Below are positions 8,852-36,009 of a stretch of DNA of 64,000 bases, in pieces (within the stretch, counting starts at the first letter, position 1; every line of letters starts with the position of its first letter). The notes under the pieces were generated by a model that had not been told where the DNA came from, made no database searches, and worked only from the letters and a program-made list of their open reading frames with translations. The DNA is taken from the NCBI GenBank assembly GCA_964538485.1, contig CAZIHJ010000004.1, forward strand, positions 5,836-69,835, in the 5' to 3' direction. Position numbers and translations under genes: made by a program. This DNA comes from an uncultured Chitinophagales bacterium. Its GTDB lineage: Bacteria; Bacteroidota; Ignavibacteria; UBA10030; UBA6906.

Positions 8852-8964
8852 GGCTTGGAGGGTTCCTTTCGCCCTTGGGACGGTAACGGTTGGCTCTGAG
8901 AACATACGGAATCTCCTTGAGAATTTACACTGAAACAAAGTAACAGCCAAATATCACGAGATTA

Positions 8965-10050: not shown

Positions 10051-11370
10051 TCACATGGTGTCGGATGCAAGGCGAAATCCCGTGAACTGCCAGCGCTTAT
10101 CACACTGGAAGAAGTTGCGGTACGTTGGCCGGATGTGTGTCCGCGGAGTAGCGCACGATCCTCCACGCAGAGTCATCTGGTTGATCATGAACTTTCCATT
10201 ATATTCCCCGAGAGGTCCCTTCTCCTGCTGGTAGCCAGGGTATGGTAAGTAGGAACTGCCCGTCCATTCCCACACATCACCATACATTTGCGAAATTCCC
10301 GACGTATCAACTCCCGGGGCATGACCGAGAGGAACGGGATGAAAGTTCTGCATTTCGAGAAAGTTTCCGCACGAAGCCGATGTCTTTACTGATGCTGCAG
10401 CCTTCTCCCACTCAACCTCCGTTGGCAATCGTTTGTCCGCCCATCGGGCGTACGCCGATGCTTCGTAATAGCTCACATGACTCACCGGTTCATCCTTTTC
10501 TATTGAGCGAATGCCTGACATTGTAACGATCCGCCATTCTCCATCTTTCTTCTCCCAGTACAATGGAGCTTGCCATCCATCTTTCGTCACGATCTCCCAC
10601 CCGTCCGAAAGCCAGAGAAGGGGATTCTGATAACCGCCGTCATTCATGAACTCCAGGAAATCTCCGCAAGTCACCAGACGATCCATCAACCCGAAGTCAT
10701 TCACAAACGCTTTGTGCCGGGGCAACTCATTATCCCAGGCGAAGCCTTTGTTTCCTGCACCCATTTCAAAGATGCCTCCCTGAATACCAATGAATTTCAC
10801 AGGAGAGAGAAGAGGTTTGGTCATTTGGGGTCGGGTCTGCTTGTACACGGGACGAAGGGGATTCGATGCGAGTAAATGCTTGATATCGGTAACCAGAAGC
10901 TCTTGGTGCTGTTGCTCATGGTGGAGACCCAATTCAATCAGCGCAGAAACCTTTCGGTAATCATTTTCTCCGACAGATTGAATAAGCGAACGCGTTTGTT
11001 CGTTGATTGCAGTCCGGTAATCGTAGACGTCCTTAACGGTCGGCCGTGAGAGTGTTCCCCGAATGTCCCTGCTCCATCGCTCACCGAAGCTCTGATAGTA
11101 AGAGTTGAAAAGAACGTAGTAATGTTCGTTGTACGGTTGATAGGTTCGGGAGAACTGCTGCAGGATCACCCGTTCAAAGAACCAGGTGGTATGGGCGAGA
11201 TGCCATTTCGGTGGACTGACATCAGCCATGGACTGGATGACGTAGTCTTCCGTAACAAGCGGTTGACAAATTTCTTCTGTCACCCGCCGGACGCTGTCAA
11301 ATGCAGCCAGCAGATCGTGTCGTTCCATTGGAGCCCTCATGATTGGATGCTGATGAATTCGTGTCTGCAT
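10051..11370 (-). CDS. egtB: Ergothioneine biosynthesis sulfoxide synthase EgtB (DinB_2 + FGE-sulfatase domains)
   Basis: 439 aa. KWHLAHTTWFFE, HHEQQHQELL (DinB-like iron site), RLPTEVEWEKAA and LRGGSCATPRTHIRPTYRNF..FTGFRLA (FGE-sulfatase C-domain) align with Mycobacterium EgtB landmarks. Confidence 0.8.
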   Translation of the reverse strand: MQTRIHQHPIMRAPMERHDLLAAFDSVRRVTEEICQPLVTEDYVIQSMADVSPPKWHLAHTTWFFERVILQQFSRTYQPYNEHYYVLFNSYYQSFGERWSRDIRGTLSRPTVKDVYDYRTAINEQTRSLIQSVGENDYRKVSALIELGLHHEQQHQELLVTDIKHLLASNPLRPVYKQTRPQMTKPLLSPVKFIGIQGGIFEMGAGNKGFAWDNELPRHKAFVNDFGLMDRLVTCGDFLEFMNDGGYQNPLLWLSDGWEIVTKDGWQAPLYWEKKDGEWRIVTMSGIRSIEKDEPVSHVSYYEASAYARWADKRLPTEVEWEKAAASVKTSASCGNFLEMQNFHPVPLGHAPGVDTSGISQMYGDVWEWTGSSYLPYPGYQQEKGPLGEYNGKFMINQMTLRGGSCATPRTHIRPTYRNFFQCDKRWQFTGFRLASDTM

Positions 11371-11546
11371 GAATGTGCTGAAGAAGTATCACGAAAGTGT
11401 CAACGCCAGGTAAACCTGTGGTGATAATTCGATGAGCATCGACATAGATCTTTTATCCCGGATGGACCGTTTCGTGACCATCGGCAGGCATATTGTATTC
11501 CATCAACAATGAACGATCACTACCACCAGTTAGCAAGGAGGCGGGA

Positions 11547-11756
11547 ATGCGAGTACATGAGGTATTGTTTGATGATTTTTTTGCAAGAAGAATCCCCGAT
11601 GAAGGATTCACGCTTGAGGAAGTCTATGAGGAATACTTTGGATTGATCCACGAGAGGCAGGAGAATCGCCCTGAATTGCATGGGCACGTTGTAACAATGG
11701 ATGGAAACGTTGTTGTCCCGGAATTGCGACCGTCAGTCGCACCGTTCGCAGCATAA
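11547..11756 (+). CDS. Small acidic hypothetical protein (69 aa)
   Basis: ATG MRVHEVLFDDFF... preceded by a strong RBS AAGGAGG with 6-nt spacing. Sub-ORF of listed ORF 11493..11756. No recognised domain. Confidence 0.35.
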   Translation: MRVHEVLFDDFFARRIPDEGFTLEEVYEEYFGLIHERQENRPELHGHVVTMDGNVVVPELRPSVAPFAA

Positions 11757-11778: not shown

Positions 11779-11931
11779 ATGGACGCGTTTGACTATGATA
11801 CCATCGCCCCTGTCATTAACGATTACATCGGTGACGAACTCACATTCGAAGACTTGAAAAAGGGCTTCTCGGCATTCCTCGAAGACGAACGATCAGAGTC
11901 CATTGCATTGGTTGCGGTCGAAACCAGATGA
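11779..11931 (+). CDS. Small acidic hypothetical protein (50 aa), translationally coupled to the MIP channel gene
   Basis: MDAFDYDTIAPVINDYIGDELTFEDLKKGFSAFLEDERSESIALVAVETR. RBS GGAGGT 5 nt upstream. Its TGA overlaps the ATG of the next gene (ATGA at 11928-11931). Confidence 0.4.
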   Translation: MDAFDYDTIAPVINDYIGDELTFEDLKKGFSAFLEDERSESIALVAVETR

Positions 11932-12713
11932 ATGACGCTTTGCGAAAACACTGGCCCGAATATCTCATGGAAGCGGCAGAGCTCGGGATCTTCATGATCT
12001 CCGCAGCAACGGTCGGCGTCTTGTTGGGGCATCCGAATTCGATCATTCATCAATCACTGCCCGACCCATTCGTACGGCGTGTTCTGGGAGGATGTGCCAT
12101 GGGCATCACAGCGATCTGTCTTATCTACTCACCGTGGGGAAAACAGTCGGGTGCACATATGAATCCAGCTCTGACTCTGACATTTCTCCGACTCGGCAAA
12201 ATCAAACGGTTGGATGCTCTCTTCTATATTTTCGCCCAGTTTGCGGGTGGAGTTACAGGAGTCGTCGTTGCAAAGACATTTCTTGGAGCCAGTTTGGGTC
12301 ATCCGTCGGTGAACTATGTCGCTACACTGCCCGGACCATGGGGAAGTGGGGCCGCATTCGCTGGAGAGTTTGTCATTGCCTTTCTAATGATGTCAATGGT
12401 CCTCTGGGCATCCCACTCGGCAACTCTTTCACCCTACACAGGTCTATTTGCGGGCCTTCTCGTGGCGTTGTACATCACACTTGAAGATCCGCTCTCCGGT
12501 ATGAGCATGAACCCCGCGCGAACATTTGGTTCGGCTATCTCAGCAATGCGATGGGATGCGCTGTGGATTTACTTCACAGCCCCTCCTCTTGCGATGCTTT
12601 TGGCAGGGGAAATGTACATCAGGCGAAAGGGACAACTGGCGGTTGCTTGTGCCAAGTTCCATCATGAGAATGACAAGCGTTGCATCCATTGCGGCGCAAA
12701 CATGAACACGTGA
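11928..12713 (+). CDS. MIP family channel (aquaporin/aquaglyceroporin-like) with a Cys/His-rich C-terminal tail
   Basis: 261 aa. Two NPA boxes (SGAHMNPALT and GMSMNPART), six predicted TM segments. Tail CAKFHHENDKRCIHCGANMNT. Confidence 0.8.
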   Translation: MNDALRKHWPEYLMEAAELGIFMISAATVGVLLGHPNSIIHQSLPDPFVRRVLGGCAMGITAICLIYSPWGKQSGAHMNPALTLTFLRLGKIKRLDALFYIFAQFAGGVTGVVVAKTFLGASLGHPSVNYVATLPGPWGSGAAFAGEFVIAFLMMSMVLWASHSATLSPYTGLFAGLLVALYITLEDPLSGMSMNPARTFGSAISAMRWDALWIYFTAPPLAMLLAGEMYIRRKGQLAVACAKFHHENDKRCIHCGANMNT

Positions 12714-12755: not shown

Positions 12756-13607
12756 ATGAAACATGTGCTTTCTGCACTCTTACTATCGCTTATCTTTTCC
12801 AGCTTGAGCCATGCCCAGGTTATATCCAAGAAGACTCTGACGCTCGAGGGGGCCAAACGGGTCATTGGAGCAGCCGTGGAAGAAGCAAAGAGACTCAACG
12901 CACCCGGTGGGGCGATTGCGGTCGTAGATGATGGCGGCAATCTTATCGCGGTCGAACGTCTCGATGGCACATTTGCCGCGGGAGCTCTCATCTCGATCGG
13001 TAAGGCCCGCACATCCGCTCTCTTCAAAAGACCGACCAGTTTCTTCGAGGATGTCATCAAGAAGGGTCGGACGCCCATGGTCGCGTTGAATGATTTTACT
13101 CCACTGCAGGGCGGCGTTCCGATCGAAGTTGATGGACAAGTCGTCGGTGCAGTCGGCGTGAGCGGCGCATCAAGCGCTCAACAGGATGAAGAGCTTGCGC
13201 TTGCCGGAGTGAAGGCACTGCAAGGGGGAACGGGAGGCAACATGGACGTGAAGTATTTCAAGGGTAACTCTGTCGCCGAGGCATTTAAGAAAGGGATGCC
13301 CCTCGTTGAAAACGGTCAGTATAAAGTCCATGCGAGTCACCGTGATGGTCCCGGTATGGCCGAGGTGCATACGAGGGATACTGATATCATTTATGTGCAG
13401 GAAGGAAATGCGACCCTCGTCATCGGCGGGACAGTTGTGGATGGAAAGCAAATCGAAACAAATGAAATTCGTGGGGTGTCAATCGTGAATGGTGAGACCA
13501 GGGCCCTTGCGAAAGGCGATGTCGTCGTGGTGCCGAACGGGATTCCGCACTGGTTTAAAGAGGTGCGCGGACCGCTCAATTACTATGTCGTAAAGGTAAC
13601 CGAATAG
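12756..13607 (+). CDS. Exported GlcG/HbpS-like (DUF336) domain fused to a C-terminal cupin domain
   Basis: Signal peptide MKHVLSALLLSLIFSSLSHAQ. GlcG-like segment GGAIAVVDDGGNLIAVERLDG...VGAVGVSGASSAQQDEELA. C-terminal cupin-like beta-barrel ...IYVQEGNATLVIGG...GDVVVVPNGIPHWF. Confidence 0.7.
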   Translation: MKHVLSALLLSLIFSSLSHAQVISKKTLTLEGAKRVIGAAVEEAKRLNAPGGAIAVVDDGGNLIAVERLDGTFAAGALISIGKARTSALFKRPTSFFEDVIKKGRTPMVALNDFTPLQGGVPIEVDGQVVGAVGVSGASSAQQDEELALAGVKALQGGTGGNMDVKYFKGNSVAEAFKKGMPLVENGQYKVHASHRDGPGMAEVHTRDTDIIYVQEGNATLVIGGTVVDGKQIETNEIRGVSIVNGETRALAKGDVVVVPNGIPHWFKEVRGPLNYYVVKVTE

Positions 13608-13648
13608 AAGAAAACGACCAGAATCCACACTACATCAAGGAGAACGTC

Positions 13649-15340
13649 ATGAAATTGAAATACACATTACTACTGCCAATCCTTTCGGTTATTTGCATGG
13701 GTTCCTCAGCCCGTGTAAACGCCGAACTTCCTGCGGGTGCGGCTGCTGCAACGGTTGATCTCGCAACTGACGCGGGTGTTGCACTCGTGAAAGGTCAATG
13801 GAGATACAGTGAAACGAAGATCATCGAAACAGACTTTTGGGAGCCCGGACCGGATGGTCAACCGGGAACCACGCCGACGAAAACATACGACTACGCTCCG
13901 CACGCTGGTGGAGTGAACTTTGATGATTCACAATGGGAAATAGTACCTCCGACCTCACTCTCAAAGCGCAGAGGCAACGGCCGGCTCTTCTTCAACTGGT
14001 ATCGCATCGCGATCACCGTGCCGGAGAAGATCGATGATATGTCCGCGTCCGGTTCAACTGTAGTGTTCTCTACCTCGCTTGATGACTATGCCGAAATTTG
14101 GGTGGATGGGGAATTGAGCCGTTCCCTTGGACAGTCAGGTGGTTCCATCGTTGCGGGGTGGAATGCAGAGAATAAGCTTGTAATCGGTCGCAACGTAAGG
14201 CCCGGACAGGTGATTCAGCTTGCGGTCTTCGGCATCAATGGTCCGATCTCCAACCCCCCTGCGAATTACATTTACCTGCGATATGCAACGCTTGAGTTTC
14301 ATCCCGGCTCGTACGCTCCTGTTGCCCTGACTCCAACCGAAGTGAATGTTGAGGTGGATCGGCATGATCCCGCCATCAATGCAATCGTTTCACTCAATCC
14401 AAAGATATTCAAGTTGGCGGATGGGTTTCGGTTTACTGAGGGACCAATCTGGGTAAGAGACGGCAAGTATCTTCTCTTCAGCGATCCGAACAGTAACATC
14501 ATCTGGAAATACACAAGCGATGGCAAACTCTCCGTTTTCCGGGAGAAGAGTGGCTACGCAGGAGCGGATATTGGTGAATACGGTCAGCCCGGCTCCAACG
14601 GCATGACCGTGGATCCGCAGGGAAGACTGACAATCGACCAGCATGGGAACCATCAAATCATCCGGATTGAGAATGATGGCAACGAGACAGTCCTTGCGGA
14701 CAAGTATCAGGGCAAGCGACTCAATAGTCCAAACGACCTCGTTTATCGCTCCGATGGAACACTGTTCTTCACCGATCCTCCGTTCGGATTGCCGAAGGTC
14801 TTCGATGACCCGCGCAAAGAGTTGAGCTTCAGCGGGGTTTACTCGATCTACAAAAGAAAGCTCCAACTGCTGACAAGAGAATTCACCGGCCCGAATGGTA
14901 TTGCCCTTTCTCCTGACGAAAAGTATCTCTATGTCGGCAATTGGGATGAGAAGGCAAAAGTAGTAAAGCGATACGAAGTGAACGCGGACGGTACGGTGAA
15001 AAATGGGACGCTCTTCTACGATTTCACCAGCGCGCCCGGTGAAGATGCGATAGACGGTGTAAAAGTCGATCAACTCGGCAATGTCTACGTGTCGGGTCCG
15101 GGTGGGTTGTGGATAATCTCCGCACAGGGCAAGCATCTGGGGACAATCAAAGCGCCCAAGCATATCCACAATATGGCTTGGGGAGATGATGATGGAAAGA
15201 CATTGTACCTATGCGCACGTGGATCATTGTACCGGATGAGGCTGAGCGTCGCCGGAGCCGGATTAAACATTGGAGCCCCCGCATTGGGAAGCAACCAGGG
15301 AACTCACCAAACCGACCACGGGGAGATCTACAATAAATGA
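13649..15340 (+). CDS. Exported two-domain protein: N-terminal jelly-roll-like domain + SMP-30/gluconolactonase/LRE-like beta-propeller
   Basis: 563 aa with signal peptide. The C-terminal half (FRFTEGPIWVRDGKYLLFSDPNSNIIWKY...GKRLNSPNDLVYRSDGTLFFTDPPFGLP) is a paralog of 17177..18202. The antisense 259-aa ORF 14390..15169 is rejected. Confidence 0.75.
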   Translation: MKLKYTLLLPILSVICMGSSARVNAELPAGAAAATVDLATDAGVALVKGQWRYSETKIIETDFWEPGPDGQPGTTPTKTYDYAPHAGGVNFDDSQWEIVPPTSLSKRRGNGRLFFNWYRIAITVPEKIDDMSASGSTVVFSTSLDDYAEIWVDGELSRSLGQSGGSIVAGWNAENKLVIGRNVRPGQVIQLAVFGINGPISNPPANYIYLRYATLEFHPGSYAPVALTPTEVNVEVDRHDPAINAIVSLNPKIFKLADGFRFTEGPIWVRDGKYLLFSDPNSNIIWKYTSDGKLSVFREKSGYAGADIGEYGQPGSNGMTVDPQGRLTIDQHGNHQIIRIENDGNETVLADKYQGKRLNSPNDLVYRSDGTLFFTDPPFGLPKVFDDPRKELSFSGVYSIYKRKLQLLTREFTGPNGIALSPDEKYLYVGNWDEKAKVVKRYEVNADGTVKNGTLFYDFTSAPGEDAIDGVKVDQLGNVYVSGPGGLWIISAQGKHLGTIKAPKHIHNMAWGDDDGKTLYLCARGSLYRMRLSVAGAGLNIGAPALGSNQGTHQTDHGEIYNK

Positions 15341-16284
15341 AAGAGAATCTTATGAAGTGGCTCTACGCTCTCCCTTTCTTTCTCACAAGCTGCGTTGGGA
15401 CGGAATATATCGATGACCCGGTTTCACCCGAACAGGTTGCGTCGCGGGTAGTGATTTCTCCTTTGAATGCGGCGGTTCAGGTTGGATTCAGTTTGCAGTT
15501 GCATGCTGCGCTGGTAAATTCTGTTGGAGACAGCTCCTTACCTCAGGAAGTGCAATGGTCCAGCTCGAACACGACGGTGGCTACAGTCAATCCCGGCGGT
15601 CTTCTTGTTGGGTTGCAGCCGGGGCAAGTACGGATTTCAGCCCGGCATATTGATCTGGTGAGTTCGCCCGCGCTCGTCACGGTCGTTGCAGATCCAAATC
15701 AGGTTGCCCGGGTTGTCGTGTCGCCTCATGCTGTACAACGGAACATCGGTGGAATGCAGCAGTTCACCGCAACTGCATACAATTTGAGCGGCGATGTGCT
15801 GGCGGGAAGAATTCCGGCGTGGGCCAGTTCCAACACGTCAGCTGTCTCAATCAATTCGAACGGGCTTGCGACGGCTCTCACTGAGGGTGCAGCATCAATC
15901 AGTGCAGTCATTGACGGAATCGAAAGCGGGCCCTCTCTGTTTACCGTTGTCGATAATGTCGTAAGCCGGACGGGAACATTTGTCATGCGACCGGGTAGCG
16001 GTCACAACGTGCAGGGAACAGCAACTCTCAGCCGTCGAACAAACGGCAGCCTGGTTCTTGCGTTTGGATCAGACTTTGCCAGCGCAGGTGGGCCGGATGT
16101 CGAAGTATATCTTTCAACTACAAACTCCGTCGGGGCAAACAGCATCAGTGTAGGTAACCTCCAGAGGTTCTCGGGTGCCCAAAGCTACAATGTGCCTTCC
16201 GGAGTCCAGTTGAACAGTTATGATTGGGTCATCATTCACTGCGTGCCATTTAATATCACGTTCGGCTATGCACGCCTGCAGTAA
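15337..16284 (+). CDS. Lipoprotein with bacterial Ig-like (Big_2) repeats and a C-terminal DM13 domain
   Basis: Lipobox FFLTSC. Two Big_2-like repeats (...VQWSSSNTTVATVNPGGLLVGLQPGQVRISA... and ...PAWASSNTSAVSINSNGLATALTEGAASISA...). The C-terminal ~100 aa (GSGHNVQGTATLSRRTNGSLVLAFGSDFASAGGPDVEVYLS...) has the same architecture as the two repeats in 21994..22851. The ATGA overlap with the upstream gene suggests translational coupling. Confidence 0.65.
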   Translation: MKENLMKWLYALPFFLTSCVGTEYIDDPVSPEQVASRVVISPLNAAVQVGFSLQLHAALVNSVGDSSLPQEVQWSSSNTTVATVNPGGLLVGLQPGQVRISARHIDLVSSPALVTVVADPNQVARVVVSPHAVQRNIGGMQQFTATAYNLSGDVLAGRIPAWASSNTSAVSINSNGLATALTEGAASISAVIDGIESGPSLFTVVDNVVSRTGTFVMRPGSGHNVQGTATLSRRTNGSLVLAFGSDFASAGGPDVEVYLSTTNSVGANSISVGNLQRFSGAQSYNVPSGVQLNSYDWVIIHCVPFNITFGYARLQ

Positions 16285-16303
16285 AACTCAAATAGGGGCA
16301 CTC

Positions 16304-17164
16304 ATGTTCACAACCTTACTTCTCCGGACGGGCCTCATCGTCCTGCTCATCTCAGTTGCAACCGAGTCACTCACGGCCGGAGGCTGGACACTGCAAGAGG
16401 GGCGAGGATTCTACAAGCTTGGCTTTCAACTGATCAACGCCAGGGAATTCTACGAACCGAGTGGGAACAAGACTTCGATTACACCGCTTGGAGACTACAC
16501 GGTGAGTGTCTATGCGGAATATGGAGTAACGGATTGGGTTACGGGAACCGCCTACGTTCCGTTCTACAAGCGAAATACTCTGGACCGGGTGGTGGGTCGA
16601 CAGAGCGGCGTGACGTATTTTGAAGGCGACCAGACATCACACTTTGCCGATGTAACCTTGGGTGCGCGTATTGGCATTATTCGGCAGTCGCCCACAGTGC
16701 TGGCTCTCAGTGTGCAACTCGGGTTGCCATTGGGCAACTCGACGCAGCCCAACGGACTCCTCTCCGGCGATGGCGAGTTCAATCAACTCGTGTCAGTGGA
16801 GATTGGCCATTCACTCCATCCCCTGCCGATGTTTGCAACTGTTAATGCAGGTTTCAATAATCGGACACGCGGTTTCTCTGACGAGTTCAGCTACGGCGCA
16901 CAGGTTGGGTACACCTTTGAGCATCTGGTGACGCTCATTGCGCACTGTCACGGGGTGGAATCGCTGAACAATGGCTCAACAGATGTGACAGGAGGCGTGA
17001 GTGGTCTTTACGCGAACAACCAGAGGTTCCTGGGGTTTGGTCTGGAGTGCATGTACAAGCTCACAGAGGCCTATGGTATATCTCTCAGTGCCGCCACCGC
17101 AACTAGAGGAAGGAATGTCCTTTCAGCAATAAAGTATTCGATCGGCTTCTCTTTAAAAATATAG
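16304..17164 (+). CDS. Outer-membrane beta-barrel protein; paralog of 688..1542
   Basis: Start at MFTTLLLRTGLIVLLISVATESLTAGGW (ATG at 16304, after the upstream TAA at 16282-16284). Shares LLSGDGEFN and the overall strand pattern with the 688..1542 product. Confidence 0.6.
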   Translation: MFTTLLLRTGLIVLLISVATESLTAGGWTLQEGRGFYKLGFQLINAREFYEPSGNKTSITPLGDYTVSVYAEYGVTDWVTGTAYVPFYKRNTLDRVVGRQSGVTYFEGDQTSHFADVTLGARIGIIRQSPTVLALSVQLGLPLGNSTQPNGLLSGDGEFNQLVSVEIGHSLHPLPMFATVNAGFNNRTRGFSDEFSYGAQVGYTFEHLVTLIAHCHGVESLNNGSTDVTGGVSGLYANNQRFLGFGLECMYKLTEAYGISLSAATATRGRNVLSAIKYSIGFSLKI

Positions 17165-17176
17165 AGGAGAATCCTC

Positions 17177-18202
17177 ATGAACAGAAAGTCTTGGGGGGTT
17201 GTCATTGCATTTTTAATAGGTCTTTCGGTGCAACAGGTGATCCCGGGAAATAGTCGGAAGGATCCGGAATACCTTCCCCGCATCGTGCGACTCGACAAGC
17301 GTATTGACGCATTGGTTCCGCAGGGTGCGAAATTGGAGAAGGTCGCTGAAGGTTACACCTGGCTCGAAGGACCGGTTTGGAGTCGCAAGGGACGCTATCT
17401 TCTGTTCTCGGACATTCCGGCAAATTCGATATTTATGTGGAAGGAAAGCAAGGGCGTAAGCCTTTTCATGAAGCCGAGCGGCTATACTGGTTCGTCGAAA
17501 TTTGAAGGAAAAGAACCCGGGTCCAACGGACTCACATTCGATCTTGATGGGCGCCTCGTGATTTGCGAACATGGCGATCGCCGTATCACCCGTGTCGAAG
17601 CCAACGGTCTCAAGACTGTCCTCGCCGACCGATTTGATGGCAAGCGGCTCAATAGTCCGAACGACGTTGTGTTCATGTCCAACGGGGACATGTACTTCAC
17701 CGATCCTCCATTCGGACTTCCACAGGCATTTGATGACCCAGCGCGAGAGCTTGAGTTCTGCGGCGTATTCAGGCTTTCAACCGGGGGAACGCTCACCCTC
17801 CTCACAAAAGATATCAAAGCGCCAAACGGGTTGGCATTCTCGCCCGACGAGAAAAAACTCTACGTCACGGACGTAGATCCAAACCGGTCTGCATGGCTTG
17901 TCTATGATGTACAGACTGATGGCACGATTGCCAACGGCCGCATCTTCCACGATGCAACTGTATTCAGAAAGCGATGGCCGGGGGCTCCAGATGGAATAAA
18001 GGTCGACAGACAAGGAAACGTCTACGGTGCCGGGCCGGGCGGCGTTTACATCTTTGCTCCGGATGGAGTGCTTCTCGGCCTGTTCGAGACCGGTACGGCA
18101 ACATCTAACTGCTGTTGGGAAGAAGATGGCTCCGTCTTATATGTTACGGCGGGGACATCAGTGTTCCGCATAGTATTACACACGGGTCGGAATGGAGGTT
18201 GA
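17177..18202 (+). CDS. SMP-30/gluconolactonase/LRE family protein (exported)
   Basis: 341 aa with signal peptide. LEGPVWSRKGRYLLFSDIPANSIFMW...GKRLNSPNDVVFMSNGDMYFTDPPFGLP is a six-bladed propeller lactonase signature. Confidence 0.8.
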   Translation: MNRKSWGVVIAFLIGLSVQQVIPGNSRKDPEYLPRIVRLDKRIDALVPQGAKLEKVAEGYTWLEGPVWSRKGRYLLFSDIPANSIFMWKESKGVSLFMKPSGYTGSSKFEGKEPGSNGLTFDLDGRLVICEHGDRRITRVEANGLKTVLADRFDGKRLNSPNDVVFMSNGDMYFTDPPFGLPQAFDDPARELEFCGVFRLSTGGTLTLLTKDIKAPNGLAFSPDEKKLYVTDVDPNRSAWLVYDVQTDGTIANGRIFHDATVFRKRWPGAPDGIKVDRQGNVYGAGPGGVYIFAPDGVLLGLFETGTATSNCCWEEDGSVLYVTAGTSVFRIVLHTGRNGG

Positions 18203-18386
18203 GGATGTTACAAGAAACGGTGACGGGAAATGAGGCCAGCCGACGTTGCACACTTCGGCAGGCTTTTGGGCAGTTCAAAACATTCCACACCTTTGTGATG
18301 GTTCTGCAATCGTTACCGACTATCTTTGGTCAGCAGCGGACATCATTAGTCTATTAATCAACCACATGACAGGATGAACAAAACGC

Positions 18387-18968
18387 ATGAAGGGCAGGAT
18401 TTTGACGGCGACGATCGTTGCAGGAATCTTGTTAGTTGTTTTGACACAAGCATTTCCCCGGAATGGTCGAAACCGCGTAACGACATTGAATAGTTCGAAG
18501 GAAATGACATTGGAGACTGCAACATTTGGTGCGGGGTGTTTCTGGCACGTCGAAGATACATTCCGTCGGATTGAGGGTGTTGTAAGCACAGCCGTAGGTT
18601 TTGAGGGTGGAACTCTCCCCAACCCGACGTACAAGGACGTGTCCACAGATCTCACTGGCCATGCCGAGGTTGTACAGATCCAGTTTGACCCTGCAAAGGT
18701 ATCGTATCAGAAACTGCTGGAAGCATTTTTCGAGCTCCACGACCCGACCACGCTCAATCGTCAGGGTCCGGATATCGGAGTGCAGTATCGATCGGCTGTC
18801 TTCTACCATTCCCCTCACCAGAAGGCAAGTGCCGAGGCATTGAAGGCAAGGCTCGGTTCGAGCGGTCGTTACAAGCGGCCAATCGTCACCGAGATAGCAC
18901 CGGCCTCAACCTTTTGGAGAGCGGAGGAATATCACCAGCAGTACTACGAGAAACAACGCGGCCGATAA
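18387..18968 (+). CDS. msrA: Peptide-methionine (S)-S-oxide reductase MsrA, with N-terminal hydrophobic leader
   Basis: 193 aa. Active-site [12 protein letters not shown]. The roughly 45-aa N-terminal extension [23 protein letters not shown]... looks like a signal peptide or anchor. Confidence 0.85.
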
Positions 18969-18986
18969 CAGTAAGAGGAACACCAT

Positions 18987-19490
18987 ATGAAAACAGCAAT
19001 GCTTGGAATCGTGGTACTGGCCTGGGTAACAATGCTCAACGCCGCAGTCAAGAATCTTCTACTCTATTCTGCAGAGAAGAAAGGATTTGTCATGGCTGAA
19101 AAGATTGTGAAGGACGACCAGGAGTGGAAGAAGCAACTCACCCCCGTGCAGTTCGATGTGACGCGCAAGAAAGGAACCGAACGTGCGTTTACCGGTGAAT
19201 ACTGGAATCATCACGAGACCGGCGTCTACAAATGCATCTGTTGTGGAACGGATTTGTTCCGATCGGAAACGAAATACGAATCTGGAACTGGATGGCCGAG
19301 CTTTTATCGACCAATTGCAAAAGAGAACGTGAAGGAAGATACTGACAACAGTTTCTTCATGTCCCGCACGGAAATCTCGTGCGCCCGCTGCGATGCGCAT
19401 CTTGGCCACGTGTTCGATGATGGACCAAAGCCCACCGGACTACGATACTGCATGAACTCCGCTGCGTTGAAGTTCGAGAAGGGCAAATAG
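18987..19490 (+). CDS. msrB: Peptide-methionine (R)-S-oxide reductase MsrB (possible signal peptide)
   Basis: 167 aa. CICCGTDLF...[16 protein letters not shown] zinc and catalytic motifs. RBS AGAGGAA before the ATG at 18987. An alternative internal start MAEKIV (19092) would remove the leader. Confidence 0.85.
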
Positions 19491-19504
19491 CTTACGACGG
19501 CAGG

Positions 19505-19527
19505 GAGGCGAAGCTCAATCGCCTCCT
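19505..19527 (+). terminator. Putative rho-independent terminator after msrB
   Basis: GGAGGCGA-agctcaa-TCGCCTCC: perfect 8-bp stem with 7-nt loop, followed by a weakly T-rich tail (ttgctcgatttccc). Confidence 0.4.
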
Positions 19528-19653
19528 TGCTCGATTTCCCGGTCGCTCCGCTGTTTTGCCATCCCTGCTTGATACTCCCGTGACTTCGTTCCGCTATTTT
19601 GAATCAGTTTCATCGCAACCCCTTGGAATCGTACCGACTTAGAGGATTACTTC

Positions 19654-21018
19654 ATGAATGCATCATCGAAAGCCCGGGTACTCATTCTCGGCGGAGGATT
19701 TGGCGGCCTTTATGCAGCCCTGGAACTCGAGAAGACCATCGCCAGAGATCCGAATGTGGAGATCACGCTTATCAACAGGGAAAACTACATTCTCTTCACT
19801 CCAATGTTGCACGAAGTAGCTGCAAGCGACCTCGACATCACTCATATCGTCAATCCCATCCGCAAGCTTCTCAAACGTATTCGCTTTTTCCATGGCGAAG
19901 TTGAATCAATCGACCTGGTCGGGAAACGCGTTGTCGCCACCCACGGGAATGAACACCATGACCATGAACTCGAGTATGATCACCTCGTGATTGCGCTCGG
20001 ATCTGAAACCAACTTCCACAACCTCCCCGGCAAGGACAATGCCGTCACGATGAAGTCTCTTGGCGACGCCATACATTTGAGAAACCGCATTATCGAGAAC
20101 CTTGAAGCTGCTGATTTTGAGTGCTTCCCGGATATTCGTGAGCCCCTGTTGACCGTCGTCGTGGCAGGAGGAGGATTTGCCGGTGTTGAAACAATTGCTT
20201 CCGTCAACGATTTCATGCGTGAAGCGCTCAGATTCTACCCTCATCTCAACGAGAAGATGCTCCGACTTGTGCTTGTCCATTCCGGTATGGTCATTCTGCC
20301 TGAACTTGGAGACAAACTGGGGACGTACGCGCAACGGAAGCTTGCTCAACGCAACGTGGAGATTAGAACAAATGCGCGCGTGAAATCATTCACTCATTCA
20401 ATTGTCGAACTGAGCGATGGATCGACAATCAAGGCTGACACGCTTATATGGACGGCAGGAACGTCACCCTGCGCTCTCCTAGAAACACTCCCATGCACAA
20501 AAGACCATGGGCGAATTGTGGTCAATAAGTTCCTGGAAGTTGACGGATTCCCGGGAGTGTGGGCTCTCGGCGACTGCGCGCTTGTCTCCGATCCATACAC
20601 CGGAAAACCGTATCCTCCAACAGCCCAACATGCGTTGCGACAGGGGGAAGTCGTTGGACGGAACATCGTGGCCAGGGTCCGCGGGACTCAAAAGAGGCCG
20701 TTCACATTTAAGACAATTGGTGCACTTGCGACGATCGGGAGAAGAACCGGCGTCGCCCAGATCTTCGGGTTCAATTTCTCCGGTTTCATTGCCTGGTGGA
20801 TGTGGCGAACAATTTATCTGAGCAAACTTCCTCGCTTCGAAAAGAAGGTCCGGGTTGCGCTGGATTGGACGTTGGATCTTCTTTTCTCAAAAGACCTCGT
20901 GAAGTTCGAGACGGTCAGGGCAAGGGCCGTTTCCAGTCCACACGATCAAGGTGAAGACCACAGTGTGGCAACAAGACCTTCAAGATCGTCCGCAAGCCGT
21001 GCAACTGTCGAGGTGTAA
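19654..21018 (+). CDS. Type II NADH dehydrogenase / FAD-dependent pyridine nucleotide-disulfide oxidoreductase
   Basis: 454 aa. Two Rossmann dinucleotide motifs (VLILGGGFGGLYAA and TVVVAGGGFAGVE). NDH-2-like C-terminal membrane-anchoring helices. Confidence 0.75.
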   Translation: MNASSKARVLILGGGFGGLYAALELEKTIARDPNVEITLINRENYILFTPMLHEVAASDLDITHIVNPIRKLLKRIRFFHGEVESIDLVGKRVVATHGNEHHDHELEYDHLVIALGSETNFHNLPGKDNAVTMKSLGDAIHLRNRIIENLEAADFECFPDIREPLLTVVVAGGGFAGVETIASVNDFMREALRFYPHLNEKMLRLVLVHSGMVILPELGDKLGTYAQRKLAQRNVEIRTNARVKSFTHSIVELSDGSTIKADTLIWTAGTSPCALLETLPCTKDHGRIVVNKFLEVDGFPGVWALGDCALVSDPYTGKPYPPTAQHALRQGEVVGRNIVARVRGTQKRPFTFKTIGALATIGRRTGVAQIFGFNFSGFIAWWMWRTIYLSKLPRFEKKVRVALDWTLDLLFSKDLVKFETVRARAVSSPHDQGEDHSVATRPSRSSASRATVEV

Positions 21019-21156
21019 GGGGATAATGATTCTATCTCTTGACTACAGATTCGTGACAATTCGAACCTATCTTGTGTCCAGGTTTTGCAACACGGTTGCC
21101 TTTACACAATGTTGGCAACACAATTTACCAACCATCAAATCAATAGGAGGTTCAAT

Positions 21157-21885
21157 ATGGTTCGTCTTACATCCATCGTGGCGATCGTTACTTTGGCGCT
21201 GGGGCTCTCAATTGAGTCACAAGCGGCAAGCAAAGTTCGTTTCAAGGTCCGTTACGAGAATATTACCACGGGCGAGATTCTGAAAAGTTCAACCGGCAAG
21301 ACAGCTCCTCTTGCCGTGGCACCCGGACTTTGGGTTGTCGGCACCATCAACGCACCGATTTTCAAGACCGGCGAAAAGGAATGGGGTCATGGTCTGGAGT
21401 CGCTTGCAGAAGACGGTGATCCGTCAAAGCAGGCAGATTTCTGTAGGACCCACAAAGGTGTCGTGGCTGCGGGTGCATACAACACGCCAATGGGCGCCAC
21501 AATGCCCGGCCCGATCACTCCCGGCAATGCATTTGAGTTTACGTTCGAGGCTACTCAAGGGCAAAAACTGTTTCTCGCCAACATGTGGGGACAATCGAAC
21601 GACCTGTTCTACAGCACAAACGAGCTGGGCATAGATCTCTTCGATGCAAAGGACAGACCACTGAGCGGCGATATCACGAACAATCTATTCCTGTACGACG
21701 CAGGCACGGAAGTCAACGAAGAGCCCGGATTCGGTCCAAACCAGGGCCCGCGTCAAAGTGGCCCGAACACCGGAGTGGTTGAAAACGGTGTCGTCCGTCC
21801 GGTGTTGGACCCTTACGTGTATCCGACGGTCGCCGGAACGATCCGGGTGACCATTACCCCCGAGGCGTCTCTCGGGGCGAAGTAA
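21157..21885 (+). CDS. Exported spondin_N-like domain protein
   Basis: Start at MVRLTSIVAIVTLALGLSIESQAAS, with AGGAGG 6 nt upstream of the ATG at 21157. KVRFKVRYENITTGE...FEFTFEATQGQKLFLANMWGQSNDLFYS resembles the bacterial spondin_N (PF06468) beta-sandwich. Family assignment is from memory and tentative. Confidence 0.5.
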   Translation: MVRLTSIVAIVTLALGLSIESQAASKVRFKVRYENITTGEILKSSTGKTAPLAVAPGLWVVGTINAPIFKTGEKEWGHGLESLAEDGDPSKQADFCRTHKGVVAAGAYNTPMGATMPGPITPGNAFEFTFEATQGQKLFLANMWGQSNDLFYSTNELGIDLFDAKDRPLSGDITNNLFLYDAGTEVNEEPGFGPNQGPRQSGPNTGVVENGVVRPVLDPYVYPTVAGTIRVTITPEASLGAK

Positions 21886-21890
21886 CACCG

Positions 21891-21953
21891 GTTTGTTAGC
21901 TAACAAACTATCAGGAGTCGGAGTTTGAAGGTGGGCGGCTCTGGCTCCTGATA
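21891..21953. promoter_or_regulatory. Two consecutive inverted repeats (perfect 18-nt palindrome, then 9-bp stem) downstream of the spondin-like gene
   Basis: GTTTGTTAGCTAACAAAC (21891-21908) is a perfect palindrome. It is immediately followed by TATCAGGAG...(27 nt)...CTCCTGATA (21909-21953). No T-run follows. Lies between the spondin-like gene and the DM13 gene. Confidence 0.4.
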
Positions 21954-21993
21954 ACAAACAAAACATTCAAATATGAAATGGAGGATATACAAC

Positions 21994-22851
21994 ATGAGCA
22001 GGAAATCATTATTGATCGTTCTCGGATTGGTTGTCGCTTCAATCGGCTGGTATGCCTTTCGTCCCGAACGACTCTTCATCAACGAAGAAGTGAACGAAAG
22101 CTTCCCGGCAGTGGGGGTACAGAACTCGAACATGCCTGAACCGCTTTCGTATGGCATGTTCCGTGGAGTCGCACACGATGCACGCGGCACGGCAACAATC
22201 TACAAGCTTGCGGATGGCAAGCGCGTTCTTCGGTTCACGGATTTCGAGACATCAAATGGCCCCGACCTTAACGTGTACCTGGTCGCGGCAGAGGATGCCA
22301 GGGACAACGAGACGGTAACAAAGACCGGCTTCATTCAGCTTGGGTCAATCAAGGGTAACAAGGGAGATCAGAACTACGATGTTCCAGCCGACATTGACCT
22401 CAACAAGTACAAAGCTGTCACCATTTGGTGCCGACGGTTCGGAGTGAATTTCGCCACGGCTCCTTTGATGGTAAAGAACGCAGAGCCTGTTGTTGTCTCC
22501 CAAGGCAACTTTCACGGGGTCTCCCACGAGACAAGGGGCACGGCATCAATCTACAAATTGGCAGATGGCAAAAAGGTGCTCCGTTTGACCGGGTTCGAGA
22601 CTTCCAATGGTCCTGATGTGCAAGTATATCTCGGATACGCGCAGGATGCGAACGACGATGAGACTGTGACACGGGCCGGTTTCTACCACCTCGCAGCTCT
22701 CAAAGGAAACAAGGGCGACCAGAACTATGAGATTCCCGGAGCCGTGGAGCTTGGCAAGGTGAAATCTGTGACCGTTTGGTGCAAACGGTTCGGGAAGAAC
22801 TTCGGCACTGCCCCGCTGACCTCGACATCTCAGAAGCTGGCGTCCATGTAG
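21994..22851 (+). CDS. Exported protein with two tandem DM13 domains
   Basis: Start at MSRKSLLIVLGLVVASIGWYAF, with GGAGGA 8 nt upstream. Two ~105-aa repeats (F(R/H)GV(A/S)H(D/E)(A/T)RGTA(T/S)IYKLADGK(R/K)VLR(F/L)T(D/G)FETSNGPD(L/V)(N/Q)VYL...GNKGDQNY(D/E)(V/I)P...WC(R/K)RFG(V/K)NF(A/G)TAPL) match the DM13 architecture. Confidence 0.65.
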   Translation: MSRKSLLIVLGLVVASIGWYAFRPERLFINEEVNESFPAVGVQNSNMPEPLSYGMFRGVAHDARGTATIYKLADGKRVLRFTDFETSNGPDLNVYLVAAEDARDNETVTKTGFIQLGSIKGNKGDQNYDVPADIDLNKYKAVTIWCRRFGVNFATAPLMVKNAEPVVVSQGNFHGVSHETRGTASIYKLADGKKVLRLTGFETSNGPDVQVYLGYAQDANDDETVTRAGFYHLAALKGNKGDQNYEIPGAVELGKVKSVTVWCKRFGKNFGTAPLTSTSQKLASM

Positions 22852-22933: not shown

Positions 22934-22972
22934 CAGCCGCAGATTCAAGCAATCTGCGGCTTTGGCTTTCTT
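22934..22972 (+). terminator. Rho-independent terminator after the DM13 gene
   Basis: AGCCGCAGAT-tcaagca-ATCTGCGGCT perfect 10-bp stem, then TTGGCTTTCTTC. Confidence 0.55.
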
Positions 22973-23081
22973 CAATATCTGAGGTATGCCGCTTTGAGAT
23001 GTTTTATTCTCCCATGACCATTTCGTGACTTTTGTTGGCCACATTGTCGACACTTCATTTTTATACTATCTGGAGATTGAC

Positions 23082-24692
23082 ATGAACAACCACTACGACG
23101 TCATCATCATCGGGACAGGTGCGGGCGGAGGAACACTGGCATACGCATTGGCCTCAAGCGGAAAGAAGATCCTCCTCATCGAGCGTGGTGGCTACGTGCC
23201 ACGGGAAAAGGATAATTGGAGTACAAAGGCTGTCAACCAGGATGCGCGGTATAATACGAAGGAAACCTGGCGCGACAAGGATGGCAGGACGCTGCATCCA
23301 CACACGAATTACTACGTCGGTGGAAACACCAAGTTCTATGGCGCGGCGTTGTTTCGTTTGCGTGAAGAGGATTTTGGAGAAGTGAAGCACCATGGTGGCG
23401 TCTCCCCCTCCTGGCCAATTCCCTACAAAGAAATGGAGCCGTACTACACGCAAGCTGAAGAGCTGTATCATGTACATGGTGAACGCGGGGTTGACCCTAC
23501 AGACCCCTGGGCGAGTGCACCCTATCCGTACGCGGCAGTGAGTCACGAACCCCGAATGCAACAGCTTAGTGATGACTGGAAGAAGCTCGGACTCAACCCG
23601 TTTCACGTACCTCTCGGTATCATGCTTGATGAGAAGAATACGCAGAAGAGTCCTTGCATTCGCTGTAACACATGCGATGGCCATCCGTGTTTGATCTACG
23701 CCAAATCCGACGCACAGGTTCTCTGTGTCGATCCGGCCCTGCAATATCAGAATGTTACGTTGCTGACCAATGCACTCGTGAAGAAGCTCGAGACAAACGA
23801 CTCGGGTACCGAAGTAACCAGTGTTGTGGTGGAAATCGCCGGGATGACCTCAAAGTATTCGGGCGACATCGTTGTGTCCTCTGCCGGTGCAATCAATTCT
23901 GCAGCATTGCTTCTGCGCTCTGCAAACACCAAGCACCCTTACGGTCTGGCTAATGGTTCAGGCGTCGTTGGACGATACTACATGGGACATGTCAACTCAG
24001 TATTGATGGCTATTGCGAAGTGTCCAAACCCTACAATTTTTCAGAAAACTCTGGCTCTTAACGATTTCTATTTTGGGTCGAACGAGTGGCAGCACCCGAT
24101 GGGGCATATTTCGTTCGTTGGTAAACTGGACAAGGACACTCTAAAAGCAGGTGCACCGGCAATTGCTCCTGGATTCGTGCTCGAAACAATGGCTGAGCAC
24201 TCGCTCGACTTCTGGCTGACGTCAGAGGACTTGCCTGATCCGAATAATCGTGTGTCTCTTGATCGTGAGGGGAACATCGTTCTGACTTACACACCGAATA
24301 ATGAAGAAGGCCATAAGCGTCTTACGGCCAAGCTGAAAGAAATTATGAAGCAACAGAGAGCCTGCCCGGTTCATGGAAACGAATGTCACCAGGGATTATT
24401 TGCCCGCAATCTCTACGCCGGTCAGCGCATTCCGTTGGCCGGAGTCGCACACCAGAACGGCACGATCCGTTTCGGTAATGATCCGAAAACATCAGCTCTC
24501 GACCCGAACTGCAAAGCGCACGAATTGGACAACCTCTACGTCGTGGATGCGAGTTTCTTTCCATCGAGTGGGGCCGTGAACCCGGCACTCACGATCATGG
24601 CGAACGCGTTGCGGGTGGCGGAGCATTTGAAGGAACGGATGGGTGTGCGTGAGGCATCGAGGAAGCCTGAGCCCGCAACAGTGATGGCCTGA
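23082..24692 (+). CDS. GMC family oxidoreductase
   Basis: Start at MNNHYDVIIIGTGAGGGTLAYALA (FAD Rossmann). C-terminal GMC_oxred_C region ...HELDNLYVVDASFFPSSGAVNPALTIMANALRVAEH. The antisense 196-aa ORF is rejected. Confidence 0.8.
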   Translation: MNNHYDVIIIGTGAGGGTLAYALASSGKKILLIERGGYVPREKDNWSTKAVNQDARYNTKETWRDKDGRTLHPHTNYYVGGNTKFYGAALFRLREEDFGEVKHHGGVSPSWPIPYKEMEPYYTQAEELYHVHGERGVDPTDPWASAPYPYAAVSHEPRMQQLSDDWKKLGLNPFHVPLGIMLDEKNTQKSPCIRCNTCDGHPCLIYAKSDAQVLCVDPALQYQNVTLLTNALVKKLETNDSGTEVTSVVVEIAGMTSKYSGDIVVSSAGAINSAALLLRSANTKHPYGLANGSGVVGRYYMGHVNSVLMAIAKCPNPTIFQKTLALNDFYFGSNEWQHPMGHISFVGKLDKDTLKAGAPAIAPGFVLETMAEHSLDFWLTSEDLPDPNNRVSLDREGNIVLTYTPNNEEGHKRLTAKLKEIMKQQRACPVHGNECHQGLFARNLYAGQRIPLAGVAHQNGTIRFGNDPKTSALDPNCKAHELDNLYVVDASFFPSSGAVNPALTIMANALRVAEHLKERMGVREASRKPEPATVMA

Positions 24693-24749: not shown

Positions 24750-25343
24750 ATGAATTCCAAGAAGAACAAGCCCATGGAAACAACAAGATCTCTCTTCATC
24801 CCCGTTATTCTTGGCACGCCACGCCAGGGACGAATGAGTGAGCATGTGGCAACGCTCCTCATCTCCGAGGTCGCCAAATTTCCGGGCGTGGAGACCGAAT
24901 TGATCGACGTGAGGAATATACCATTGACCGTGAACGGAGCAGGTGAGGACATCAAGGATCCTCAATTCTCTGCCCAGTGCAATCGAGCCGATGCGTTCAT
25001 CATCATCGCACCAGAGTACAACCACGGCTATCCCGGATTGCTGAAGCACGTCCTCGATACGAATCTGAAAGAATATATCCACAAGGCAGTCGGTATCGTC
25101 GGGGTGTCGGCGGGACCATTTGGAGGCACGCGTGTTGTGCAAAACCTTCTGCCGGTCATGCGAGAGCTTGGCTTGGTGACGATCTTTTGGGATGGCAACT
25201 TTTCCCAGGTGCAGAAGGCATTCGACGCATCCGGAAAGCTCCTCGATCAGGCATATCCGCGACGGCTGGAGAAGTTCATCAAGGAGTTGATCTGGATGGG
25301 AACAGTGTTGCGGTACGGGCGGGAGACTGTATCAATCCAGTAG
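24750..25343 (+). CDS. NADPH-dependent FMN reductase family (flavodoxin-like fold)
   Basis: 197 aa. LFIPVILGTPRQGRMSEHVATLL...FIIIAPEYNHGYPGLLKHVLD is the NADPH-dependent FMN reductase (PF03358) pattern. Confidence 0.7.
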   Translation: MNSKKNKPMETTRSLFIPVILGTPRQGRMSEHVATLLISEVAKFPGVETELIDVRNIPLTVNGAGEDIKDPQFSAQCNRADAFIIIAPEYNHGYPGLLKHVLDTNLKEYIHKAVGIVGVSAGPFGGTRVVQNLLPVMRELGLVTIFWDGNFSQVQKAFDASGKLLDQAYPRRLEKFIKELIWMGTVLRYGRETVSIQ

Positions 25344-25594: not shown

Positions 25595-25596
25595 CT

Positions 25597-29106: not shown

Positions 29107-29130
29107 AGTGGTGAACTCGGGAGAATGAGA

Positions 29131-33604: not shown

Positions 33605-33632
33605 TTCTCTTATCCGACTATTGAGAGCGCAA

Positions 33633-35980: not shown

Positions 35981-36009
35981 TGCTTTGTAACATAACCAAA
36001 GGACGCAGC

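Follow-up and report, generated by a model that had tools for sequence, protein, structure and literature searches.

A DM13-centred gene cluster in an uncultured Ignavibacteria genome, conserved across phyla, as a candidate stress-defence regulon

What brings together, on one strand of an uncultured bacterium's genome, a run of genes whose products are nearly all predicted to be exported? The question is raised by positions 12756-22851 of a stretch of 64,000 nucleotides (the window) from an uncultured Chitinophagales bacterium placed in the Ignavibacteria (contig CAZIHJ010000004.1), for which a reading made from the DNA letters without database searches, here called the sequence-only reading, had proposed a ten-kb envelope module for repair of oxidative damage or redox relay. 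We find that this region is the first half, mostly envelope-facing, of a conserved cluster of about 24 kb (~11.5-35.7 kb), to which lineage-specific inserts have been added. We propose, with a probability of roughly 0.55, that the cluster is a co-regulated stress-defence regulon, the stress being probably oxidative or thiol. In kind such a cluster is a stress regulon of the extracytoplasmic function (ECF) sigma factor type, and in content it is new. We found no published description of the function of bacterial DM13 domains, of the cluster or of its link to ECF sigma factors, in a literature coverage that is incomplete, nor did we find in the literature anything that would contradict the sequence-only reading in its statement that no characterised pathway matches the gene set.

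The conservation survey was anchored on the last gene of the region, g10 (21994-22851, + strand), which encodes a membrane-anchored protein with two periplasmic DM13 domains (8.9e-51) and whose family holds more than 7,500 clusters at E<1e-5. It covered 85 non-redundant loci from many phyla and metagenome assemblies. When species-representative genomes were scanned with a DM13 alignment, 80 loci resulted, distributed over Acidobacteriota (Terriglobales, Pyrinomonadaceae and others), Gemmatimonadota, Planctomycetota, Verrucomicrobiota, Binatia, Dadabacteria, Ignavibacteria, Desulfobacterota and others, the carriers being mostly soil lineages (Pyrinomonadaceae, Terriglobales, Gemmatimonadales). 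Throughout the 85 loci the gene set stays grouped around the membrane-anchored DM13 gene, with its order permuted between phyla. This conservation of the neighbourhood, kept across relatives and phyla, is far beyond chance, so that the genes are not the random juxtaposition that the sequence-only reading had allowed for.

The genes were counted by tblastn of every window protein against all loci, and the counts below refer to the 53 species-representative loci of at least 12 kb (the long loci), a set outside which the closest relatives of the window, L001, L002 and L006, stand. The most frequent companions of DM13 are a GMC flavoprotein (39 of 53), a tandem-VOC protein (36), a GH63/MGH1-like hydrolase (33) and a MIP-family channel (29), followed by a Zn-dependent glucose dehydrogenase (GluDH) and a GDE_N/GDE_C amylo-1,6-glucosidase-type protein (24 each), the long SGL protein of the g2 type (22), the spondin-domain protein (20), the HbpS-cupin fusion (19), the type II NADH dehydrogenase NDH-2 (17) and an NADPH-dependent FMN reductase (14). 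The conserved core is DM13-GMC-VOC plus MIP, HbpS-cupin, SGL, spondin, NDH-2, GH63, GluDH and GDE, and half of it lies beyond 12756-22851. Some neighbours are nearly fixed: VOC directly follows GMC in 43 of 46 loci, the long SGL gene directly follows HbpS-cupin in 19 of 24, and GMC directly follows DM13 in 32 of 54. On contigs whose DM13 relatives are 68-83% identical, the arrangement from EgtB/MIP to GMC and beyond is largely preserved, and contigs at 57-61% identity retain only DM13-NDH2-GMC-VOC-GDE-GH63. Moreover, the compartment assignment is conserved. As judged by a heuristic, export-type N-termini occur in 37 of 40 VOC proteins (Sec-type), 22 of 28 SGL proteins and 18 of 21 HbpS-cupin proteins, and DM13 also carries an export signal or membrane anchor across loci; an export signal is never found in GMC (0 of 43), GH63, GluDH, NDH-2, FMN reductase or GDE.

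The ten-kb island, taken as a unit, does not survive these results. The same-strand (+) run of genes extends over 11547-38251, far beyond the region, and the G+C content is flat (0.51-0.53) over it, so that 12756-22851 is no compositional island. Note also that some of its genes are not core members. The true orthologues of the Big_2-DM13 lipoprotein (g3) occur only in L001, L002 and L006, and the outer-membrane barrel (g4) is found in none of the long loci; these two are clade-restricted additions and not the core components that they had been taken for. The methionine sulfoxide reductases are found in one (MsrA) and two (MsrB) of the 53 long loci, and the pair is missing from L001, L002 and L006 and from at least 82 of the 85 loci. 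NDH-2 comes straight after the second SGL gene in L001 and L006, and L002 lacks the second SGL gene as well. The MsrA/MsrB pair is thus a recent insertion specific to the window's genome, a passenger, and the repair function that had been built on it loses its basis. EgtB is found in 0 of the 53 long loci; it stands in the same place in L001 and L006.

What kind of regulation would hold such a cluster together is suggested by the other loci. De novo clustering of all open reading frames (ORFs) in the loci gave a family of ECF sigma factors (Sigma70_r2 + r4_2) in 39 loci, and in 35 of the 53 long loci when fusions with a CMD domain are included, positioned at the head of the cluster or immediately 5' of DM13. 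(The label "DM13" in these single-linkage clusters includes spondin genes, which are kept apart in the tblastn matrix.) In 21 of the 39 loci the sigma factor gene is adjoined by a ZAS-type anti-sigma ORF (C-x26/27-H-x3-C-x2-C, 65-138 codons) with no transmembrane (TM) segment; a soluble ZAS protein of this size, similar to that of RsrA, is compatible with redox sensing. In 27 of the 85 loci, those of the Pyrinomonadaceae type, DM13 is preceded by a promoter-like dyad, TGTAAGGA-N14-CGACYAA, which in some of them also stands before MIP and GH63, and the Pyrinomonadaceae loci carry CMD/AhpD-like proteins and CMD-ECF fusions. Moreover, msrA lies directly upstream of ECF-ZAS-DM13 in L009, its product being without a signal peptide, and msrB lies directly after DM13 in L021, so that, with the exported pair of this window, msr genes have been recruited to the side of the ECF-DM13 unit repeatedly and independently.

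Further variants of the regulatory genes were seen. The Pyrinomonadaceae-type loci L036, L040, L051-L054, L057, L059, L066, L079 and others have a second, divergently transcribed sigma factor, in which the ECF core is preceded by a fused CMD/AhpD-like domain. A stand-alone CMD protein lies beside this fusion, and in these loci GH63 and GluDH are separated by a mannose-1-P guanylyltransferase-like gene. In L015 (Acidobacteriaceae) a small ORF at 7677-7985, STAS-like by eye, lies directly upstream of the ECF sigma gene, which hints at partner switching besides the ZAS protein.

In the window's own lineage the candidate regulatory element is the motif TCGTGAY-N10-YAYNTTG, which has five matches in the window against 0.37 expected, a count that 0 of 100 shuffles reach. 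On the + strand it lies upstream of the unit that begins sORF1-sORF2-MIP-g1 and includes SGL (11472-11495, TCGTGACCATCGGCAGGCATATTG; orthologous site kept in L001 and L006), of NDH-2 (19578-19601), of the spondin gene (21051-21074; orthologous copies in L001 and L002) and of GMC (23023-23046; orthologous copies in L001, L002 and L006), and on the - strand upstream of a response regulator/kinase pair (8936-8959). A matrix scan adds a sixth copy that abuts the annotated start of egtB (11371-11394, -). The matrix was made from four window sites, two of L001 and one of L002, and is partly circular for those loci, where the sites lie at sORF1, GMC, EgtB, VOC and spondin (L001) and at spondin, GMC, FMN reductase, VOC and Big_2-DM13 (L002). 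L006 did not enter the matrix, and there the sites at sORF1, GMC, Big_2-DM13, EgtB and DM13 are its five best matrix matches. Neither the motif nor the matrix scan finds a copy upstream of msrA or msrB. This is good evidence that the motif is a shared promoter or operator, and its copies at egtB and at the response regulator link the cluster of this clade to ergothioneine synthesis and to the two-component system. The Pyrinomonadaceae-type dyad TGTAAGGA-N14-CGACYAA has a single match in the window, no more than chance would give, and this match lies within a gene and on the wrong strand. Another dyad, 'TGGTG...AACT' upstream of GMC, was rejected, being the coding sequence of the DM13 C-terminus.

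The stress-defence reading is preferred because of the order-shuffled co-occurrence of the genes, the ECF/ZAS neighbours, the motif at egtBD, the recruitment of msr genes and the CMD/AhpD-like proteins. The HbpS-like domain of g1, being related to the sensors EfgA and HbpS, is also counted for the stress theme. Of the oxidative theme of the sequence-only reading there stands, by such indirect evidence, the theme itself, with ECF/ZAS pairs nearby elsewhere, the egtBD motif and the msr recruitment; the Msr-centred relay is contradicted. Based on this reading, the following may be expected to occur. A stress signal, most likely an oxidant or a thiol-reactive compound, would free a sigma factor, or, in this lineage, would act through a regulator, possibly one encoded elsewhere or else the adjacent two-component system. 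Stored glucans or glycoside solutes in the cytoplasm would yield glucose through GH63 and GDE, and the glucose dehydrogenase would convert the released glucose into NAD(P)H with no ATP spent; FMN reductase and NDH-2 would hand electrons to flavin and quinone, and ergothioneine would be made. In the envelope, the aquaporin, the lactonases, HbpS-cupin, spondin, DM13 and VOC, and here also MsrA/MsrB, would handle reactive small molecules and damaged proteins.

The closest known regulatory systems are SigR-RsrA of Streptomyces coelicolor and SigH-RshA of Mycobacterium tuberculosis, where likewise an ECF sigma factor stands beside a small, TM-less C...H-x3-C-x2-C anti-sigma factor, as in most carriers of the cluster. 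The SigR/SigH regulons include msrA/msrB, the synthesis of low-molecular-weight thiols and flavin/quinone reductases; in the present case the associated genes are msr, egtBD, FMN reductase and NDH-2. The differences are that the phyla are others, that the sigma factor is nearer to SigW/RpoE and the anti-sigma factor nearer to RsiW, that the window has no such pair, and that DM13, GMC, VOC, SGL, HbpS-cupin, spondin, GH63 and GDE are not members of those regulons. The window also resembles, at the level of its genes only, HbpS-SenS-SenR of Streptomyces reticuli, with a secreted PF03928 protein and, about 4 kb off and on the opposite strand, a kinase/regulator pair that shares the motif; it differs in that g1 is fused to a cupin and closer to EfgA, that the kinase has two predicted TM segments, and that the other phyla use ECF/ZAS instead. 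In soils the Acidobacteriota, the Gemmatimonadota and their neighbours belong to the most abundant bacteria, and their stress physiology is almost unstudied. For these soil phyla the cluster is a candidate general or oxidative stress regulon, and it offers an entry point in the form of a regulator type, a candidate promoter and a three-protein core (DM13, GMC and VOC), which also gives bacterial DM13 domains their first testable partners and context.

A more specific proposal about that core is tentative, and in its full form we consider it unlikely. DM13-GMC-VOC with their satellites would be an undescribed, horizontally shared ECF/soluble-ZAS stress regulon, in which DM13, with a fold of the superoxide dismutase (SOD) type, would be the primary extracytoplasmic effector and would act, together with a cytoplasmic Fe-S flavoprotein and the periplasmic VOC, on reactive oxygen- or sugar-derived species. 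For g10 the AlphaFold2 model (pLDDT 86.5) combines one TM helix with two beta-sandwiches, to which Cu,Zn-SOD folds come nearest; the likeness to SodC, YojM and Cu-only SOD5 is one of fold only, at 8-12% identity and Foldseek E>1e-3. The invariant residues of DM13 are one His and one Cys per domain, and among them there is no CxxC, haem, flavin or other cofactor motif. PDB sequence searches gave no relative for DM13 or spondin, and the scanned ORFs of the window hold no DOMON or cytochrome domain (e.g. cytochrome b561). The view of DM13 as an electron-transfer module in a redox relay thus finds no support. A kinship of spondin with DM13, prompted by the single-linkage merge, was rejected, as BLASTP shows no similarity between them. 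An exported protein of about 130 aa, whose C-terminal 'IWC' strand resembles that of DM13, separates MIP from HbpS-cupin in L002, L006, L021 and L046 (592-1005 in the last); the window has no copy of it.

The GMC protein (23082-24692, +) has no signal peptide and holds a Cys-rich loop, CIRCNTCDGHPC. Its best solved relatives are the alpha subunit of FAD-dependent glucose dehydrogenase (FAD-GDH; 6a2u, 2e-32) and the large subunit of fructose dehydrogenase (FDH), with 7w2j also among them, and its CxxCxxCxxxxC segment aligns with the corresponding loop of 6a2u_B. In FAD-GDH and fructose dehydrogenase a 3Fe-4S cluster sits in that loop, and by analogy we infer an Fe-S cluster in this GMC protein. 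Across phyla it is 75-79% identical, which implies an unusually strong constraint, within a very large family. It is like FAD-GDH of Burkholderia cepacia and FDH of Gluconobacter in its full-length alignment, its Cys-rich loop and a small gene immediately upstream. It is unlike them in that the window and the related loci have no cytochrome c subunit and no Tat-signal small subunit, that the place upstream is taken by DM13, which has a plain membrane anchor, that the Cys spacing is CxxCxxCxxxxC and that the GMC protein carries no export signal. A role of DM13 as Tat hitchhiker partner of GMC was rejected, the N-terminus being MSKR and not RR, and the VOC signal peptides being Sec-type. The tandem-VOC protein of the glyoxalase/dioxygenase fold (25990-27000, +), which is exported, gave in the PDB sequence search weak ChaP-type matches only.

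Several points weigh against the stress-defence reading. Co-regulation is read from motifs and synteny only. Hidden Markov models of the ECF, ZAS, CMD-ECF and CMD families find no match in the six-frame translation of the window, so that these 64 kb hold no sigma/anti-sigma pair, and the window motif differs from that of the Pyrinomonadaceae and is absent from other clades. Among sequence neighbours the sigma factor of the other loci is closest to SigW and the anti-sigma factor closest to the N-terminal domain of RsiW; as SigW-RsiW, the nearest solved pair, is controlled by proteolysis, the ZAS motif alone is no proof of redox sensing. The metal site and histidine ligands of SOD are not conserved in DM13. 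The export calls come from a heuristic, a crude N-terminal hydropathy test. Moreover, the large content of sugar enzymes fits a catabolic or an osmotic role equally well, and a simple chain from glucose over the lactone to gluconate would be split between compartments, because the lactonases are periplasmic and the glucose dehydrogenase is cytoplasmic.

The alternative that survives best, possible although unlikely, is a response to osmotic stress or to desiccation and rewetting. Here the aquaporin would serve water flux, and GH63 and GDE, elsewhere also GH15, would dispose of glycoside solutes or glucans; upon rewetting the oxidoreductases would burn the released glucose and the antioxidant genes would meet an oxidative burst, in which respect it overlaps with the stress-defence reading. 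It draws on the frequencies of MIP, GH63 and GDE counted above (29, 33 and 24 of 53), on the soil habit of most carriers, and on some loci which carry a GH15 glucoamylase/trehalase-like protein, a TMEM175-like channel and the mannose-1-P guanylyltransferase-like gene between GH63 and GluDH. However, the cluster has neither solute-synthesis genes nor mechanosensitive channels, and the ECF factors with soluble ZAS proteins, as well as the recruited msr and CMD/AhpD genes, point to oxidants.

Catabolism of an alpha-glucoside or of a sugar lactone, which we consider improbable, would run from entry through the outer-membrane channel and MIP over hydrolysis by GH63/GDE and oxidation by GMC/GluDH to ring opening by SGL. 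GluDH, GH63 and GDE are indeed all sugar enzymes, GMC is homologous to the sugar dehydrogenases 6a2u and 7w2j, and an SGL protein of the window is closest to an exported gluconolactonase. Against this proposal, the cluster lacks kinase, aldolase and dehydratase steps, a sugar transporter of the ABC or PTS type and a regulator of the LacI/GntR type; soluble ZAS/ECF pairs are atypical as catabolic regulators, and the outer-membrane channel is clade-specific. Moreover, this pathway has no role for HbpS-cupin, spondin, DM13, VOC, NDH-2, FMN reductase, egtBD or Msr.

Still harder to maintain, and highly improbable, is repair of methionine sulfoxide in the envelope, with electrons passed from NDH-2 via DM13 to exported MsrA/MsrB. 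MsrA and MsrB have export signals, as in Neisseria PilB (Trx-MsrA-MsrB with DsbD) and E. coli MsrPQ, and have no Trx, DsbD or CcdA partner in the window; DM13 is membrane-anchored and has one invariant Cys per domain, and msr genes also lie beside ECF-DM13 in L009 and L021. Unlike those known systems, however, the window lacks a Trx domain fused to the reductases, a DsbD or CcdA and a haem protein of the MsrQ type. The pair, absent from the relatives and from nearly all other loci, cannot be the cluster's reason for existing, the MsrA of L009 lacks a signal peptide, and DM13 lacks a CxxC, haem or flavin motif. Also against it, NDH-2 enzymes reduce quinone on the cytoplasmic face of the membrane. 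Finally, a chance juxtaposition of unrelated exported proteins, for which it could be said that no characterised pathway links them, is refuted by the co-occurrence of these families, in shuffled order, in dozens of species of many phyla and by the upstream motifs common to them.

We turn to the genes of 12756-22851 themselves. There are ten ORFs on the + strand, here g1-g10, and not the eleven of the sequence-only reading. On the remaining content that reading fared better. The packing is tight, with the ATGA overlap of g2 and g3 at 15337-15340, and by crude hydropathy all products but NDH-2 (g8), nine of ten, begin with a hydrophobic signal or anchor. Pfam and NCBIfam profile scans agree with the GlcG/HbpS domain, the two SMP-30 propellers, the three DM13 domains, MsrA, MsrB, NDH-2 and Big_2. 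The spondin assignment holds in part, as the protein matches NCBIfam NF038123 and does not match Spondin_N PF06468.

The first gene, g1 (12756-13607, +), encodes an exported HbpS-like (GlcG/DUF336) domain fused to a cupin (PF03928, 5.7e-32; 110.9 bits against a gathering cut-off of 25). Its nearest solved proteins are EfgA (6bws, 3.5e-13) and then HbpS (3fpv, 1.5e-8), so that the formaldehyde sensor EfgA is nearer to this domain than HbpS itself. The exported product of g2 (13649-15340, +) has an N-terminal domain of about 230 aa without a family match, followed by an SGL domain (PF08450, 1.9e-35) that is predicted to be a six-bladed propeller of the lactonase type. Its paralogue g5 (17177-18202, +; PF08450, 9.9e-43), 45% identical to this C-terminal domain, is an exported SGL propeller of the gluconolactonase type whose closest solved relative is the exported Xanthomonas gluconolactonase 3dr2 (1.6e-44); the two score 123 (g2) and 147 (g5) bits against a cut-off of 26.3. 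The predicted lipoprotein g3 (15337-16284, +; lipobox LTSC) has two Big_2 domains and one DM13 domain (5.4e-17), and the PF10517 scores are 62.8 bits for g3 and 171.4 bits for the two domains of g10 against a gathering cut-off of 25.

For g4 (16304-17164, +), a putative outer-membrane beta-barrel channel of the COG4313/Phenol_MetA_deg type, the start was placed at 16304 rather than at the longest-ORF position 16220 because its homologues have 283-289 aa; alignment of homologues likewise shifted the start codons of g9 (21157) and g10 (21994). It has no Pfam match of its own above threshold, and PF13557 is matched by 13 of 45 homologues of g4. The AlphaFold2 model is an all-beta barrel (pLDDT 91, pTM 0.83) with the COG4313 channel 4rl8 as the top Foldseek match and FapF also matched, and a paralogue, 34% identical, lies at 688-1542 (-), which agrees with the paralogous outer-membrane barrel of the sequence-only reading. 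The modelled barrel has the same size as the channel Pput2725 of Pseudomonas putida (4rl8); it differs from the COG4313 channels in staying under the Pfam threshold and in belonging to the cluster only in this clade.

The two reductases are g6 (18387-18968, +), an MsrA with an N-terminal anchor and the GCFW motif (TIGR00401, 204.4 bits against a cut-off of 108.1), and g7 (18987-19490, +), an MsrB with a signal peptide, two CxxC pairs and RYCMNS (TIGR00357, 211.9 bits against 113.05). NDH-2 is g8 (19654-21018, +), with Pyr_redox_2 (6.2e-48, 164 bits) and NDH2_C (5.9e-11, 42.8 bits), both over their cut-offs, and with the dinucleotide-binding motifs GGGFGG and AGGGFAG. The exported spondin-domain protein g9 (21157-21885, +) matches NF038123 at 3.3e-33 (115.5 bits against a cut-off of 40), and a Pfam search that included PF06468 gave no match even at E<=10. 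The spacer between g9 and g10 holds two stable hairpins (21891-21953, +; -30.7 kcal/mol, z = -4.35), for which a role as RNA stabiliser, attenuator or operator is conceivable; in it are a perfect 18-nt palindrome and a hairpin with a 15-bp stem, with no T-tract after. A terminator-like hairpin with an 11-bp stem and a T-rich tail follows g10 (22935-22961, +). It was the sole useful yield of a scan for sigma-70 promoters and terminators, the promoter matches of which were at shuffle level. An Rfam scan of the window gave no family match.

Upstream of the region, two small acidic ORFs, sORF1 (11547-11756, +; 69 aa) and sORF2 (11779-11931, +; 50 aa), show codon-wise conservation in L001 and L006 and have no family match in a Pfam search; sORF2 overlaps by ATGA the start of the MIP-family channel, an aquaporin or aquaglyceroporin (11928-12713, +; PF00230, 2.7e-28). 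Divergent from the cluster are the ergothioneine synthesis genes egtB (10051-11370, -; DinB_2 and FGE-sulfatase) and egtD (8965-10038, -; Methyltransf_33, 5e-99), and next on the same strand come, by Pfam, an OmpR-type response regulator (8147-8950, -), whose true start is probably further downstream, and a HAMP/HisKA histidine kinase with two predicted TM segments (6663-8150, -).

Downstream of GMC the NADPH-dependent FMN reductase (24750-25343, +), found by profile search, is followed by a conserved zinc-ribbon protein of 62 aa with two CxxC pairs (25406-25594, +), which is kept after FMN reductase in about 19 loci of several phyla. A further ORF of about 96 aa at 25561-25896 is conserved in L001, L002 and L048. 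After VOC come, by Pfam, an exported YHS-domain protein (27026-27496, +), an S8 peptidase with a CBM48 domain (27472-29106, +) and a HAD hydrolase (29125-29700, +), which tblastn finds in 5, 11 and none of the loci, respectively, and then the cytoplasmic sugar enzymes, also by Pfam: GH63/MGH1-like hydrolase (29775-32456, +), GluDH (32453-33604, +) and GDE (33519-35696, +). To the 3' side of GDE there is a terminator-like hairpin, followed by a four-TM protein without a family match (35980-36591, +), an unannotated ORF that is winged-helix-like by eye (~36592-36900, +) and CreD (36917-38251, +); none of these three co-occurs with DM13 in other loci.

Farther away, at 46619-50812 (-), agmatine deiminase and a carbon-nitrogen hydrolase, read as N-carbamoylputrescine amidase of putrescine synthesis, lie beside polyphosphate kinase and are unrelated to the cluster. 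At the left end of the window there are a nitroreductase (1668-2381, +), a radical-SAM/DUF3641 protein (2413-3387, -) and a PAS/GAF hybrid histidine kinase (3461-6433, -).

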